Assembly (NCBI RefSeq): GCF_056712565.1
Contig: NZ_CM160072.1
Reading direction: 5' to 3' (one strand)
DNA: 64,000 nt
Positions within the stretch are counted from its first letter, which is position 1; each line of letters starts with the position of its first letter. Of this stretch, positions 48,345-55,753 are shown piece by piece. Below the pieces are notes generated by a model. The model worked only from the letters and a program-made list of their open reading frames with translations. It was not told where the DNA came from and searched no databases. The position numbers and the translations under genes are program-made.

Positions 48345-49430
48345 TTAAATGCTGGCAATACTTTCACGCAAGATCCGCAATATCGTCTCTTCACCGCTGC
48401 GATTTGGGTTAATGCGAATCGCGCAATGTTCTAACTGCGGATTCGCCTGGCGAAACGTTCCGGAAAGTCGATAAAAGAGCGGCGGGATTTCATATTTTGA
48501 CTCTGCACCAACCGGGTAAGGCAAGGCACCGAGTTTCTGCGCCTCTTCCAGCACTCTGGCGGCAATCGGCTGATGAAACTCCACAATCAATACCTTCGAC
48601 TGTGCATTGGCAATGACGGCGCTTTTCACTTCCACCACCGCGCCGCCGTTAAGCAAAGCCAGCAACCGTTCAGATACCCCCGCCTGCACCGCGTGCATCA
48701 CTGGCGCGAGCACCAGACCACGCAACACCTCTAATGCCTGCGCCCCCTGAATCTGACTGCCGCCGGAATAGAGCGTGGCGCGAATCCGGCTAATAACATC
48801 GGCATCGCCTACCACCGCACCAACGCCCTCTGGCCCAAATAGCTTGAAGCAGGAAAATGTCGACACATTCGCCCCGCATTCGCAGCCGATTCGCGCTACC
48901 TTCATCACCGCATAGTTGTCATCGGTTAACGCTGGAACACCTGCCGCGCGCAACGTTGCCAGCACGTCTGCCAGCACATAGCGGTCCTGCGGCTGCTGGC
49001 GCGTATGCTGCACCAGCGCTGCATCAGGTTGTTGCTCGTCAACAACCTGCTTCAGTGCCGACAGATCATTGAAATCAGCCGTAATGAGCGTTAGCCCCAT
49101 CTGCTCAATAATAACCCGTGTCGTCGGGTAAACAGGCGCGTCATGCACCAGAAGACGCTGCCCCGATTTGAGCAAAGCCGCCAGTGCCGCACGGATCGCG
49201 CCAGTACCCGCGCCCTGTACCAGCGCCGCGGCCTGTGCGTGAAACGCGTCAGCCAGCACCTGTTCCACACGCTGGGTAATGCGGGGCTGATTTAGCCCCG
49301 GCGTTAAGCCCAAATCACCGCAGGTAAGAAACTCGCAGCCAGGAAAATGACGGCAAATCGTGTCCACCAGCGCAAACTGCTTTTGCTGCGCCTCAATAAG
49401 CGTCAGGCTTTGCAGAGGAAACGTCTTCAT
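48345..49430 (-). CDS. yhfS: Putative PLP-dependent enzyme YhfS
   Basis: 361-aa ORF. Confidence 0.8.
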   Translation of the reverse strand: MKTFPLQSLTLIEAQQKQFALVDTICRHFPGCEFLTCGDLGLTPGLNQPRITQRVEQVLADAFHAQAAALVQGAGTGAIRAALAALLKSGQRLLVHDAPVYPTTRVIIEQMGLTLITADFNDLSALKQVVDEQQPDAALVQHTRQQPQDRYVLADVLATLRAAGVPALTDDNYAVMKVARIGCECGANVSTFSCFKLFGPEGVGAVVGDADVISRIRATLYSGGSQIQGAQALEVLRGLVLAPVMHAVQAGVSERLLALLNGGAVVEVKSAVIANAQSKVLIVEFHQPIAARVLEEAQKLGALPYPVGAESKYEIPPLFYRLSGTFRQANPQLEHCAIRINPNRSGEETILRILRESIASI

Positions 49431-49441
49431 AGGTGCCTTCC

Positions 49442-50746
49442 TTAAGCCGGAACGAACAGGCCAAGCCAGTAAAGAACATTCAGCAGGATGCCGGTGATCA
49501 TTACTGCTACGACCGGTGCCGCCATTTTCTGTACCGGACGGCCCAGGGATTCGTTGAGGAAGTAAATGGCAACCGCGATAGAGAATCCGGTATAGCCCGC
49601 CATTTTGATTGCTGCAAAGATCGAACCGACCAGCAACGCCACTTCCATCAGCATATTCATGGCGTTACGGATGTTATCCGACGCATTACGTACCGACGGG
49701 TAGCGCCCCAACCATTTGCCGATCGAACGAAGCAGCAAGACTTCCGCCGAAATAACCACTGCGCCTAATACCGCTGCAACCATCGGATTCGGCGAGAGAT
49801 AGCCCACCGCATAAACAAAGGTAAAGCCCGCAACTGCATACACACCGGTGGCTAACGCCGTGGTGGCAATCAACGGCACAAAACCCAGCCCGCGCATAAA
49901 TTCTGCCAGTGCCGCCTGGTTGATTAGTGTTTGCGATTGTTCCGGCGTTACGCCTGCGGAGTACGCTTTCTCCAGTGTGAAGATCGACACTTCACTACCG
50001 GCGAAAATCTTCATGCTGGCAACGGCAGCAATCAATGCACCCACGATGGCGATATACGGTAAGTTTTTGATAATCCGTGATGTACGCTCTTCAAACACCG
50101 ACATACCGCTGGCATCGATATCATTTTCATCACGATGACGCAGGTCATGAGTTATTGCGATCCCCAGCAGCATCACCATGCCAATAAAGATTTCGATGGA
50201 TTCAGGGTTAAGATGTGGGGAATAGCGCACTACCACCACACGAGTCATCAGTACCACCACGGCGGCGATCAGACTTTGCTTCCAGCCAAACTGGTAGAAA
50301 ATCGCCACCAACGGGAACAGTGCAAAAGCTGAAACCACCGGCGAGCTTAATTCCCCCAGGCTACCTAATACATCCACCGGTAGCGCGGTCAGCAGCTGGT
50401 TTACTGGCAACAGACAGGTGAGGATCAATATTCCCCAGATAGCACCAAGACCAAACGCCATCAGGCTGTTTATCGCCAGTACGCCGAGGATATCGGTAGG
50501 AAGAAAGAGTAACCATGCGTTGAGCAGCCCGTTTTTCAGGGTAAAAGAGATCCCCACCGAGGCCACAAAACCAATGCTCAGACCAAAAGCGATACTCCCC
50601 GCCTCGCGACGGTTCATATAGCCTTCAATCAGTTGTGGCAGGATCGGGCGGATACCGTCATGAAAAACGGCCGCCGAGCGATGCGCCAGAAGCGATGTCA
50701 TACCCGTCAGGCACGCCACCACGATAATCTGAATATACAGATCCAT
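49442..50746 (-). CDS. yhfT: Polytopic inner-membrane protein YhfT (putative transporter)
   Basis: 434-aa multi-TM ORF. Confidence 0.8.
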   Translation of the reverse strand: MDLYIQIIVVACLTGMTSLLAHRSAAVFHDGIRPILPQLIEGYMNRREAGSIAFGLSIGFVASVGISFTLKNGLLNAWLLFLPTDILGVLAINSLMAFGLGAIWGILILTCLLPVNQLLTALPVDVLGSLGELSSPVVSAFALFPLVAIFYQFGWKQSLIAAVVVLMTRVVVVRYSPHLNPESIEIFIGMVMLLGIAITHDLRHRDENDIDASGMSVFEERTSRIIKNLPYIAIVGALIAAVASMKIFAGSEVSIFTLEKAYSAGVTPEQSQTLINQAALAEFMRGLGFVPLIATTALATGVYAVAGFTFVYAVGYLSPNPMVAAVLGAVVISAEVLLLRSIGKWLGRYPSVRNASDNIRNAMNMLMEVALLVGSIFAAIKMAGYTGFSIAVAIYFLNESLGRPVQKMAAPVVAVMITGILLNVLYWLGLFVPA

Positions 50747-50757
50747 AGTCGTGCCTT

Positions 50758-51111
50758 TTATTTCAGATGGTTAATCAGCATCGGAATCGCGTGTTCAACG
50801 TGCTCAACGGAAAGGCCAAACGCCACTTTTCCTTCAGCGATCATTTTGGCGATATGTTCGTCTTTCGCTTTAATGCCCGGCTTGGCAATGGTGCAACTTT
50901 TGTTATAGCCAATCACCGCGATAGCAATCGACAATGCCGCGCCCGCACCGGTATTACACGCACCGATGTAGTAATCCAGTTGCCCGGATTTCACTTTCAT
51001 TGCCGCTTCCATGTCGTTGTGAATGAAAACTTCAAAACAGCCAGGAGCCGTCGCTTCAATGGTTTTTTTAATCTGCTCACGCTGTAAGCCTGCAACGCCA
51101 ATCTTTTTCAT
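50758..51111 (-). CDS. yhfU: Uncharacterised protein YhfU
   Basis: ~117-aa ORF from MKKIGVAGLQ... Confidence 0.75.
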   Translation of the reverse strand: MKKIGVAGLQREQIKKTIEATAPGCFEVFIHNDMEAAMKVKSGQLDYYIGACNTGAGAALSIAIAVIGYNKSCTIAKPGIKAKDEHIAKMIAEGKVAFGLSVEHVEHAIPMLINHLK

Positions 51112-54385: not shown

Positions 54386-54468
54386 CTTGTTGCCTCGTTT
54401 CTGTTCCTTGAATTAAATATTCATTTTTTTGAATATTTAGGTTGTACGACGTGGATTTATCGGGAGCT

Positions 54469-54831
54469 TCAAACCTCTTCGTTAGCAGCCATCCATAATC
54501 CATAAAGGTTGGCCAGCAAATAGCCTTCTTCACACGGGTTAACTTCCAGTGCAAATTCCTTCAACAATACCTGATGCAATTGCACAACGGCTTGCCAGTG
54601 GCTGGATTGCGCCAGTTCCGCCAGCAATTCGTCATCCAGCGGCTCTATTTCTTCACCACGGCGACTGCGCATCAGTGCACTCGCCATATGTGTCATCGCC
54701 ATCGTTCCTTGCTCACTGCGCACCGGTAGATGGCACTCTGTTTCCAGTACATTGACGACCTGCATCATGCCTTTGCAGATGTCCTTATCAATAACGCCTG
54801 CATCGCAAAGCAGGTTGAGTCTGGTTTCCAT
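54469..54831 (-). CDS. yhfY: Uncharacterised protein YhfY
   Basis: ~120-aa ORF from METRLNLLCDAG... Confidence 0.7.
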   Translation of the reverse strand: METRLNLLCDAGVIDKDICKGMMQVVNVLETECHLPVRSEQGTMAMTHMASALMRSRRGEEIEPLDDELLAELAQSSHWQAVVQLHQVLLKEFALEVNPCEEGYLLANLYGLWMAANEEV

Positions 54832-54847
54832 ATCAGATGCCTTTCGT

Positions 54848-55753
54848 TTAATAACTGGGTTCCTGTTCCCCACTGACTACTCGCTGTTGATGAGCAAGCA
54901 GGGCATGTTTATCAACAACTGCACGCAGCAGTTGTTGCATTGGGTAATCATCGGCACGCGTCAGGATCACGGCTTCGGTGGCCTGTAAAAATCGCGGATC
55001 GTCTGTGAGCGGCGTCGCTTCTAATCCCAGCATAGTCAGTTCGTTTTCCGCCACTACGTTCCAGATAACCGCGTCAACATCGCCTTTAACAATGCGTTGT
55101 AAACTCTCGTGATAAGAGAGATCGACTCGTTCCACATCACTATCGCCAAAAAAGACATCGGTCATGATTTTCTGATCTGCCGAACGGTTATCCAGCCCCA
55201 CGCGCTTCACGTTTGCGGACTCGCCTTTACGGCAAATCAACTGGTGCTCGCCAACGTAGGTATGCGGTCCCAACTCCAGCGCGAGGCATAATCCTTTTTG
55301 CGTGAGATAACTTTCCGCCGCCAGTCGCGAAACCACCGCCATGTCATACACGCCGTTAAGTAAACACTCCACGCGAATATCCGCGCCGCGCATATGCGCA
55401 TAGTAAAAAGGAATGCCATCAAACTGGGCTTTCAATCCGCTCGCCAGGCCTTCGTACAAACGGGTATAGGGCAAGGGCATCGCACATACCACGTTGTTGA
55501 TATCCACATGAGTCAGCAATGCTTTGTTATCCATCTCGACCAGATAACTGCCATTGCGCCCACGGCGTTCAATCCGTATCGCTCCGCTTGATTCCAGCGT
55601 TTTCAACGCGGCCTGCGTCAGGCCAACCGATGAACGGCATTCAGTTGCCAGCTCATCTATGGTTTTCAGTCGATTACCGCACTTTTCACCCAACAAATAA
55701 CGGGCCAGTGTCGTGATAACGACGCCTTCTTTTTTGATAAACGTTCGACGCAT
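54848..55753 (-). CDS. yhfZ: Putative transcriptional regulator YhfZ
   Basis: 301-aa ORF at the head of the yhf cluster. Confidence 0.75.
   Translation of the reverse strand: MRRTFIKKEGVVITTLARYLLGEKCGNRLKTIDELATECRSSVGLTQAALKTLESSGAIRIERRGRNGSYLVEMDNKALLTHVDINNVVCAMPLPYTRLYEGLASGLKAQFDGIPFYYAHMRGADIRVECLLNGVYDMAVVSRLAAESYLTQKGLCLALELGPHTYVGEHQLICRKGESANVKRVGLDNRSADQKIMTDVFFGDSDVERVDLSYHESLQRIVKGDVDAVIWNVVAENELTMLGLEATPLTDDPRFLQATEAVILTRADDYPMQQLLRAVVDKHALLAHQQRVVSGEQEPSY

Follow-up and report, generated by a model that had tools for sequence, protein, structure and literature searches.

The Escherichia coli yhfS-yhfZ/php cluster, a conserved operon without an explained function: leads on its regulation and transport

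We analyzed a 64,000-nucleotide stretch of DNA (the window) from contig NZ_CM160072.1 of NCBI RefSeq assembly GCF_056712565.1 and focused on the yhfS-yhfZ/php gene cluster that it carries. The region from 48345 to 55753 encodes eight co-directional open reading frames (ORFs) on the minus strand, yhfZ, yhfY, yhfX, yhfW, php, yhfU, yhfT, and yhfS (Table 1), and both the gene set and the order are those of b3376 to b3383 in Escherichia coli K-12. The K-12 placement between trpS and yhfL/cysG is kept as well: the dam-rpe-gph-trpS genes lie upstream of the cluster, and the convergent yhfL and cysG come after yhfS. The window DNA is from E. coli. The region matches ATCC 11775, NU14, and other E. coli strains at 100% identity minus 2 bases and is annotated there as yhfS to yhfZ. 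Among complete E. coli genomes, 5083 of 5426 (94%) have the cluster, and it is missing from 343. An earlier note on this DNA had placed eight minus-strand genes at these coordinates, which the ORFs, the K-12 match, and the genome survey bear out, well past what chance would give. The six structural genes are closely spaced, with no gap between yhfX and yhfW, a 4-nt overlap between yhfW and php, and gaps of 10 to 11 nt elsewhere. A spacer of 83 nt separates yhfY from the structural genes, which start with yhfX.

Table 1. Features of the yhfS-yhfZ/php region, with positions in the window
Feature	Position	Strand	Description
yhfZ	54848-55753	-	HTH_41 DNA-binding domain and YhfZ_C domain; regulator
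yhfY	54469-54831	-	Stand-alone PRD-domain protein, 120 aa
Inverted repeat TAAATATTCA-AAAAAA-TGAATATTTA	54414-54439		Perfect 10+10 repeat; probable YhfZ operator
yhfX	53222-54385	-	Fold-type III pyridoxal phosphate (PLP) enzyme; alanine-racemase-like barrel and YhfX-specific C-terminal domain
yhfW	51995-53221	-	Phosphopentomutase-like metalloenzyme, alkaline-phosphatase superfamily
php	51122-51998	-	Phosphotriesterase-homology amidohydrolase; pseudogene in the window
yhfU	50758-51111	-	DUF2620 protein, 117 aa; RpiB/LacAB fold
yhfT	49442-50746	-	Polytopic membrane protein, PF10797 family; presumed permease
yhfS	48345-49430	-	Fold-type I PLP enzyme, distant kin of the Cys/Met gamma-family; accessory
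GC-rich hairpin	48278-48303		Between convergent yhfL and yhfS; probable bidirectional terminator closing the operon

A search with a YhfU alignment returned 351 YhfU-encoding genomes. We examined loci from the best 80 of these genomes together with the genes surrounding divergent homologues of YhfT and YhfU, about 90 loci in all. These loci have a conserved seven-gene core, consisting of yhfZ, yhfY, php, yhfU, yhfT, yhfX, and yhfW. The core ranges over Enterobacterales, Vibrionaceae, Bacillota (Kroppenstedtia, L011, and L012), Fusobacteriota (Sebaldella and a Fusobacteriales metagenome-assembled genome, with L092 among these loci), and unplaced metagenomic lineages, and it is kept together even where YhfT identity is only 25 to 50%. 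The eighth gene, yhfS, is an accessory member: Escherichia, Citrobacter, Buttiauxella, Cedecea, Kroppenstedtia, and Sebaldella have it, whereas the clusters of Vibrionaceae and Yersinia do not, and those of Yersinia also lack yhfW. Co-occurrence across genomes, which the earlier note had suggested as a check on its eight-gene cluster, holds for seven of the genes and leaves yhfS outside the conserved core. The smallest recurring unit, found on short contigs of the most distant lineages, is yhfX-yhfU-yhfT.

All eight genes are under purifying selection: the ratio of nonsynonymous to synonymous substitution rates (dN/dS) between the window alleles and K-12 was 0.00 to 0.14. Since the window copy of php is frameshifted, this gene was scored, and its dN/dS computed, on the intact B2 allele. 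As a separate observation, dS against K-12 was higher in the cluster (0.08 to 0.36, with the top values in yhfS and yhfX) than in the adjacent trpS, gph, and rpe genes (0.07 to 0.09), and 1774 genomes matched the region at only 90 to 95% identity. This suggests that the locus has recombined or that its allelic lineages are old. The layout also varied in two further ways. In Enterovibrio the cluster is divided (L058, L062, and L064 versus L063, L080, and L084) into yhfZ-PRD-php-yhfU-yhfT and yhfU-yhfT-yhfX-yhfW, with a separate yhfU-yhfT pair in each part. The most divergent lineage has, after yhfT, a conserved ORF of 139 aa that matches no Pfam family (L009, 4206 to 4625; L010, 1565 to 1984).

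In essentially all of the related loci examined, yhfU directly precedes yhfT. YhfU belongs to Pfam family DUF2620 (E value, 6e-52), and its AlphaFold model, run on a 38-sequence alignment, has the RpiB/LacAB fold. Cys52 is invariant within the motif G-A-C-x-T/S-G-x-G-x-A and aligns to the catalytic Cys of RpiB (C-x-T-G-x-G loop). At lower Z, the model is structurally like low-molecular-weight protein tyrosine phosphatase (LMW-PTP) and enzyme IIB (EIIB) of the phosphotransferase system (PTS). The other active-site residues of RpiB are an N-terminal Asp-His pair, His99, and Arg residues near the C terminus that bind phosphate; at the level of sequence, no D-H pair was seen after strand 1 of YhfU. 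DUF2620 members weakly match Gly_rich_SFCGS. Weak matches to NMT1/THI5-like (10 of 38 members of the alignment) and to PBP_like (5 of 38) were also seen and are probably noise from a common alpha/beta architecture. YhfT (PF10797; E value, 2e-180) has about 12 hydrophobic segments and comes from a rare family, for which a set of 1.84 billion proteins contained 304 representatives at 50% identity. It has no similarity to other Pfam families or to any solved structure. YhfT presumably transports the substrate of the pathway.

The two genes ahead of the structural genes point to regulation specific to the cluster. YhfZ matches Pfam HTH_41 (E value, 8e-19) and YhfZ_C (E value, 1e-84) and the NCBIfam model YhfZ_full (374 bits; cutoff, 260). 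Its C-terminal domain is PDB entry 2OZZ, titled "hypothetical protein," and yhfZ is present in nearly all related loci. E. coli YhfZ has no match to the PF00392 winged helix that would mark a GntR-type protein and has HTH_41 instead; PF00392 was matched weakly and only by a Bacillota YhfZ orthologue. NCBI nevertheless gives YhfZ the name "GntR family." YhfY is predicted to be a second regulator, a PRD protein with one histidine. Across its family (n = 77), the residues of the PRD signature, His48, Ala52, and Arg55, are invariant, and 69 members have Asn in place of the second PRD histidine. Homologues of YhfY reach 40 to 44 bits for PRD (PF00874), and YhfY itself weakly matches TIGR03582.

The spacer between yhfY and yhfX, which is the promoter region of the structural operon, contains an inverted repeat, TAAATATTCA-A6-TGAATATTTA, centered about 42 nt upstream of the yhfX ATG. 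The repeat is unique in the window, with 0 expected by chance. We found the palindrome before yhfX in 41 loci while the spacer around it varied, which is a phylogenetic footprint. In the Vibrionaceae and the L003 lineage, whose operon begins with yhfZ, it stands before yhfZ (15 loci). In L003 the palindrome is also found ahead of a cellobiose-type PTS EIIC gene, and a Fusobacteriales contig has two copies. Because YhfZ is the sole DNA-binding protein that travels with the cluster, the palindrome is probably the YhfZ operator. A riboswitch or attenuator was considered and set aside: there was no Rfam element in 47800 to 56100, and the sites reported in PMC4448311 are 5 to 12 kb off the operon.

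Besides the transport pair, the cluster encodes two PLP enzymes and a metalloenzyme. YhfX matches Pfam Ala_racemase_N (E value, 4e-22; 79.3 bits; cutoff, 24.1) and YhfX-like_C (E value, 4e-37), and the PLP lysine of fold-type III enzymes, Lys61, is invariant in its family. When the family profile was searched against solved structures, alanine racemases came first (E value, 2.6e-5), followed by D-threonine aldolase and D-3-hydroxyaspartate dehydratase. YhfX scored below the ornithine racemase Orr equivalog (29 bits; cutoff, 480). YhfS matches Pfam YhfS-like_C (E value, 1e-44) as well as Aminotran_1_2 and Cys_Met_Meta_PP, and its homologues weakly match SelA and DgaE-related models. The structures of YhfX (PDB 4KBX) and YhfS (PDB 4J8L) are both titled "uncharacterized." YhfW matches Metalloenzyme and NCBIfam PRK12383 (733 bits; cutoff, 254), a model whose name is not a tested function. 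It fell below both DeoB equivalogs (TIGR01696, 139.6 bits versus 341.2; NF003766, 178.8 versus 256). In an alignment to the Bacillus cereus phosphopentomutase (PPM) 3M8W, YhfW keeps D-S-x-G, G-x-D-T-x-x-G-H, D-x-x-G-H, A-D-H-G-N-D-P, and H-T-R-E. These include the metal ligands and, in G-x-D-T-x-x-G-H, the Thr nucleophile, residues whose catalytic roles are established for the B. cereus enzyme. The central cap region is poorly conserved with respect to 3M8W.

The remaining structural gene, php, is disrupted in the window, as the earlier note had claimed. Alignment with ATCC 11775 showed that a GT dinucleotide (2 bp) is missing between 51924 and 51923. On translation, a premature stop appears at 51909 to 51911, and the product is 25 native residues followed by GLPP and the stop. 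The frameshift cuts the His12 and His14 metal ligands off from the remaining barrel. The deletion was present in 0 of 5069 E. coli genomes that have the segment, for which the best identity was 98.5% and none reached 99%. The lesion is either a very recent strain-private pseudogenization or a sequence error. Since the deletion is private, the seven other genes equal those of K-12 in length, and dN/dS is low, there is no sign of species-wide decay.

Intact Php belongs to the phosphotriesterase (PTE) family (PF02126; E value, 5e-147; 489.5 bits; cutoff, 22.4) and matches NCBIfam NF007373 (652.8 bits; cutoff, 486). It scored below the models for phospho-furanose lactonase (NF045706; 100.7 bits versus a cutoff of 630) and organophosphate hydrolase OPH (NF041153; 103.7 versus 500). 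Structures of Php are available (PDB 1BF6 and 4LEF), and its closest solved kin are the phosphotriesterase-like lactonases (PLLs), with E values of 1e-38 to 1e-40. E. coli PHP is said to hydrolyze acetyl esters of phosphorylated glycerol and to require the phosphate, reportedly in work by Nemmara and colleagues of the Raushel laboratory in Biochemistry in 2018. Even if so, this is an in vitro profile and not a pathway. We also considered the function of mammalian PTER, which is an N-acetyltaurine hydrolase (PMC11374699). We did not adopt it for Php: the PTER papers skip E. coli Php and put PTER closest to Rhodobacter 3K2G.

We then compared the genes around the cluster. In Enterobacteriaceae it invariably lies between trpS and cysG. 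Elsewhere, phosphoesterase genes of six families adjoin it in independent lineages: PAP2 and class B acid phosphatase (L057/L072), glycerophosphodiester phosphodiesterase (GDPD) in Vibrio tubiashii and Kroppenstedtia (L078 and L093), and HAD Cof-type, His_Phos_1, and PHP-domain proteins (L011, L012, and L014). The Kroppenstedtia GDPD resembles lysophosphatidylglycerol phospholipase D. A bona fide NagB gene follows yhfW in one Bacillota genome (L012), and an HPr-enzyme I (HPr-EI) fusion and an aldo-keto reductase adjoin the cluster in L014. A lactose/cellobiose-family PTS (IIB, IIC, and IIA) lies beside the cluster in 11 loci. In 8 to 11 Vibrionaceae loci, this PTS is joined by DUF7916 (296 aa; no NCBIfam name), a porin, and a CBM5/12 protein of 600 to 770 aa; the loci with such neighbors are L061, L065 to L068, L083, and L085 to L088 in Vibrionaceae, and L003. 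Both L003 and L061 have the yhf palindrome on the PTS promoter side. Separately, three ATP-grasp (amino-acid-ligase-like) genes follow a cluster without yhfW in L007 (GCA_042801615.1, 11815 to 16353), which hints at a peptide-like or biosynthetic link.

Protein identity to b3376 to b3383 is 94 to 100%. The flanks of the cluster differ from those in K-12. In that strain, yhfL and yhfS are separated by the fructoselysine operon, frlABCDR, which is present neither in the window nor in ATCC 11775; in both of these, yhfS directly follows yhfL (window 47818 to 48345, covering the end of cysG, yhfL, and the end of yhfS). The hairpin between yhfL and yhfS, found in a terminator scan as a match to the consensus, has 11 pairs, 8 of them GC. 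At the other end, the trpS-yhfZ spacer is 159 bp long in the window (55754 to 55912) and 289 bp in K-12. This difference of about 130 bp may be a bacterial interspersed mosaic element (BIME), because such a repeat has been reported upstream of yhfZ in K-12 (PMC2965389). A hairpin with a T run, CCGGGGAAACCCGG-TTTTTTT, lies just past trpS (about 55872 to 55892) and was not among the terminator-scan sites. One of the 5097 matching places in E. coli genomes is on a plasmid, and a few genomes have two copies of the cluster.

A full-text search of a literature library returned no paper that gives the cluster a substrate or a pathway. All eight products are "putative" or "uncharacterized" in the current K-12 RefSeq record, and papers from 2024 to 2026 still term YhfS, YhfW, and YhfZ uncharacterized. 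The individual genes do appear in screens: yhfZ is a match in a peptide-resistance screen (PMC12147183), YhfW was recovered in a cstA promoter pull-down (PMC7730263), yhfW came up in an antibiotic-survival screen that terms it uncharacterized (PMC12924614), and yhfS has a biofilm phenotype in the Keio collection, again as an uncharacterized protein (PMC11227560). These matches define no pathway. The feature is already known, as a catalogued E. coli operon without an explained function, and on present evidence it is not a new kind of system. The literature search, the RefSeq record, and the PDB titles all agree with the earlier note, which had called the pathway uncharacterized. Its family assignments were likewise recovered by Pfam and NCBIfam matches (PLP enzymes for yhfS and yhfX, a membrane protein for yhfT, PTE for php, and a metalloenzyme for yhfW), as was a putative regulator for yhfZ through HTH_41 and YhfZ_C. 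Its description of yhfU and yhfY as small proteins was correct as to size and can be refined: yhfU encodes the RpiB-fold partner of YhfT, and yhfY what appears to be the second regulator. The substrate that it had guessed at, an amino- or phospho-sugar or a lactone, is compatible with our results and unproven.

What could such a cluster do? We tentatively favor, while giving it somewhat less than an even chance, a substrate-inducible catabolic (salvage) operon, controlled by YhfZ and YhfY, for a phosphorylated compound that has an ester or lactone bond and an alpha-amino-acid center. The catabolic direction, each biochemical step, and the protein at the operator are what we infer; gene content, family and fold assignments, the conserved catalytic residues, the conservation of the core and of the palindrome, and purifying selection are shown by the data. 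In favor of the scheme are the seven-gene core and the low dN/dS, the active-site residues kept in YhfW, YhfX, and YhfU, the PRD signature of YhfY, the lactonase kin of Php and its reported need for a phosphate, the palindrome before yhfX or yhfZ in 56 loci, and the phosphoesterase, NagB, and PTS neighbors. The operon would be yhfX-yhfW-php-yhfU-yhfT-yhfS, with yhfZ and yhfY as its own regulators. YhfT, with about 12 transmembrane (TM) segments, and its obligatory cytoplasmic partner YhfU would import the compound, and the invariant Cys of YhfU could either isomerize a sugar-like moiety or relay a phosphoryl group. Php, a binuclear-metal amidohydrolase, would then open the ester or lactone of the phosphorylated intermediate; this step would be lost in the window strain because of the php frameshift. 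YhfW, whose active site is intact and whose cap has diverged, would act as a phosphopentomutase-type enzyme and shift the phosphate to yield a mainstream sugar or polyol phosphate. YhfX would racemize or beta-eliminate at the amino acid center, and in some lineages YhfS, a fold-type I PLP enzyme, would further process the YhfX product. Lastly, YhfZ would bind the conserved TTCA-A7-TGAA palindrome, and the single conserved histidine of YhfY may report PTS status.

Several points weigh against this scheme. No substrate, inducer, or growth phenotype is known. The cluster encodes no kinase; the phosphate would have to be added during uptake or be on the substrate already, and its origin is otherwise unexplained. 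The route is not uniform, because Yersinia lacks yhfW and Vibrionaceae lack yhfS, and the minimal yhfX-yhfU-yhfT unit means that the phosphate and ester chemistry could be peripheral. Each of the neighbor associations is confined to a few lineages. At the level of single proteins, YhfU scored below the threshold of Pfam LacAB_rpiB (PF02502; 13.6 bits versus 24.7), with weak matches in 20 of 38 members, and it lacks the RpiB C-terminal segment, ending at residue 117, about 30 residues shorter. E. coli YhfY scored 18.2 bits for PRD, under the cutoff of 23. Finally, promoter-like sigma-70 hexamers were no commoner than in shuffled sequence, and therefore no promoter call was made.

Other explanations account for parts of the same evidence. 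One that we regard as unlikely, if less so than those that follow, is that the locus is an amino acid module: YhfT-YhfU would import an unusual or D-amino acid, YhfX would racemize or deaminate it, and Php, YhfW, and YhfS would be lineage-specific add-ons that widen the substrate range. This would fit the most divergent loci, L008 and L009, which keep only yhfX-yhfU-yhfT with or without yhfW, and a YhfX profile that is nearest to alanine racemases and D-amino-acid lyases, as well as the ATP-grasp genes paired with the cluster in L007. However, the L008 and L009 contigs are about 5 kb long, and the missing genes may reflect truncation. In at least 60 complete loci php travels with the unit, as yhfW does in most (not in Yersinia), and neither an RpiB-fold partner nor a PRD regulator is typical of amino acid uptake. 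The missing kinase would instead be accounted for by a PTS-like group translocator, in which YhfU phosphorylated on Cys52 would be the EIIB-like donor and YhfT the EIIC-like channel. The substrate would be phosphorylated on entry, and the same relay would phosphorylate His48 of YhfY and so tune YhfZ. The strict yhfU-yhfT adjacency, a PRD protein with one invariant His, the glycine-rich Cys loop, the lower-Z likeness to LMW-PTP and PTS EIIB, the HPr-EI fusion in L014, and the weak link between DUF2620 and SFCGS all speak for this idea, but neither YhfU nor YhfT matches an EIIB or EIIC family by sequence, and we consider it rather improbable.

The neighboring genes bear on two narrower proposals about the substrate. 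It could be an amino sugar, either a chitosan/chitobiose product or an amino-aldonolactone phosphate. Php would be a lactonase or de-acetylase, YhfX and YhfS would be lyases of amino-aldonates by analogy with DgaE, and YhfW would be a mutase for amino-sugar phosphates. The cellobiose/chitobiose-type PTS, DUF7916, porin, and chitin-binding CBM5/12 protein that flank the Vibrionaceae loci, the common palindrome in L003 and L061, NagB after yhfW in L012, the weak SelA/DgaE-related matches of YhfS homologues, and the D-beta-hydroxy-amino-acid dehydratases among the solved kin of YhfX are all consistent with this proposal. Yet the enteric clusters have no such neighbors, the cluster has no aldolase, and the association could be plain Vibrionaceae synteny; we judge it quite improbable. 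A fainter prospect still is a glycerophosphate that bears an aminoacyl group and originates in Gram-positive envelopes; D-alanyl-glycerol-phosphate from teichoic acid and deacylated aminoacyl-phosphatidylglycerol are examples. Php would then remove the aminoacyl ester, YhfX would interconvert D- and L-alanine, and YhfW would convert sn-glycerol-1-phosphate to sn-glycerol-3-phosphate. YhfX is alanine-racemase-like, the reported in vitro preference of PHP for acyl esters of glycerol phosphate would fit, and GDPD adjoins the cluster in V. tubiashii and Kroppenstedtia, but this adjacency occurs in only 2 of about 90 loci. The proposal, purely inferential, also gives no role to the RpiB-fold protein or YhfS and leaves the PTS and NagB neighbors unexplained. 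The least credible idea, and a very improbable one, is that the cluster is a cryptic or decaying E. coli remnant without a present function. The frameshifted php of the window, the genomes without the cluster, and the lack of a known phenotype would fit, whereas the low dN/dS of every gene, retention of the cluster in 94% of genomes, a deletion private to the window sequence, and a conserved operator all speak against it.

Thus, our comparative analysis did not identify the substrate and gives new leads on regulation and transport: the seven-gene core, the RpiB-fold permease partner, the single-His PRD protein, an operator shared across phyla, and the phosphoesterase, PTS, and NagB neighbors. 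These leads make the question of function more directly testable. The cluster is among the larger conserved E. coli operons without an assigned substrate, and crystal structures exist for four of its proteins. An explanation of the cluster would fill a gap in the metabolic map of a model organism and might expose a gut-relevant nutrient and a new type of transporter. The boldest form of the transport lead, to which we give little credence at present, is that YhfU-YhfT represents a new class of uptake machine. In it, an orphan 12-TM permease would have an RpiB-fold Cys protein as its dedicated partner in the cytoplasm. This protein would act as a PTS-like phosphoryl relay or a transport-coupled isomerase, and would be tied to transcription through the one-histidine PRD protein and YhfZ. 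The distantly related SFCGS/DUF4310-4312 systems might belong to the same class.

Those systems are among the closest known parallels to the cluster. In the TIGRFAM descriptions, SFCGS proteins are reported to be encoded beside a PRD protein and orphan membrane proteins as well, which would also speak for the group translocator. Clusters of the EF_0829-EF_0839 type combine PRD, SFCGS, and DUF4310/4311/4312 proteins with a DgaE-like PLP lyase, an amidohydrolase, and a KDGP-aldolase. They and the Salmonella dga D-glucosaminate pathway are analogous to yhf in architecture, with a PLP enzyme, an amidohydrolase, a small PRD protein, and a small soluble protein rich in Cys and Gly that is encoded beside orphan membrane proteins. 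However, the membrane families differ, yhf has no aldolase and the EF type no phosphomutase, and the homology between the small proteins is only marginal. The single components can each be set beside a known protein. Php shares the (beta/alpha)8 binuclear-metal fold of the PTE family with the SsoPox-type PLLs and with Lmo2620 and Bh0225 (NF045706); unlike these lactonases, it falls in a subfamily of its own (NF007373), whose physiological substrate is not established. YhfW and DeoB have a common catalytic core, metal ligands, and Thr nucleophile, whereas the cap (substrate) domain of YhfW has diverged and its genomic context is unrelated to nucleoside catabolism. YhfU differs from the RpiB/LacAB isomerases in that their N-terminal Asp-His pair is not evident in its sequence and in that it is always encoded beside a membrane protein. 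Like the LicT/BglG antiterminators and the MtlR/LevR activators, YhfY has a PRD signature that includes the phosphorylatable His. Unlike those regulators, it consists of a single PRD in which only one His is conserved, lacks an RNA- or DNA-binding domain of its own, and is accompanied by a separate HTH protein, YhfZ.

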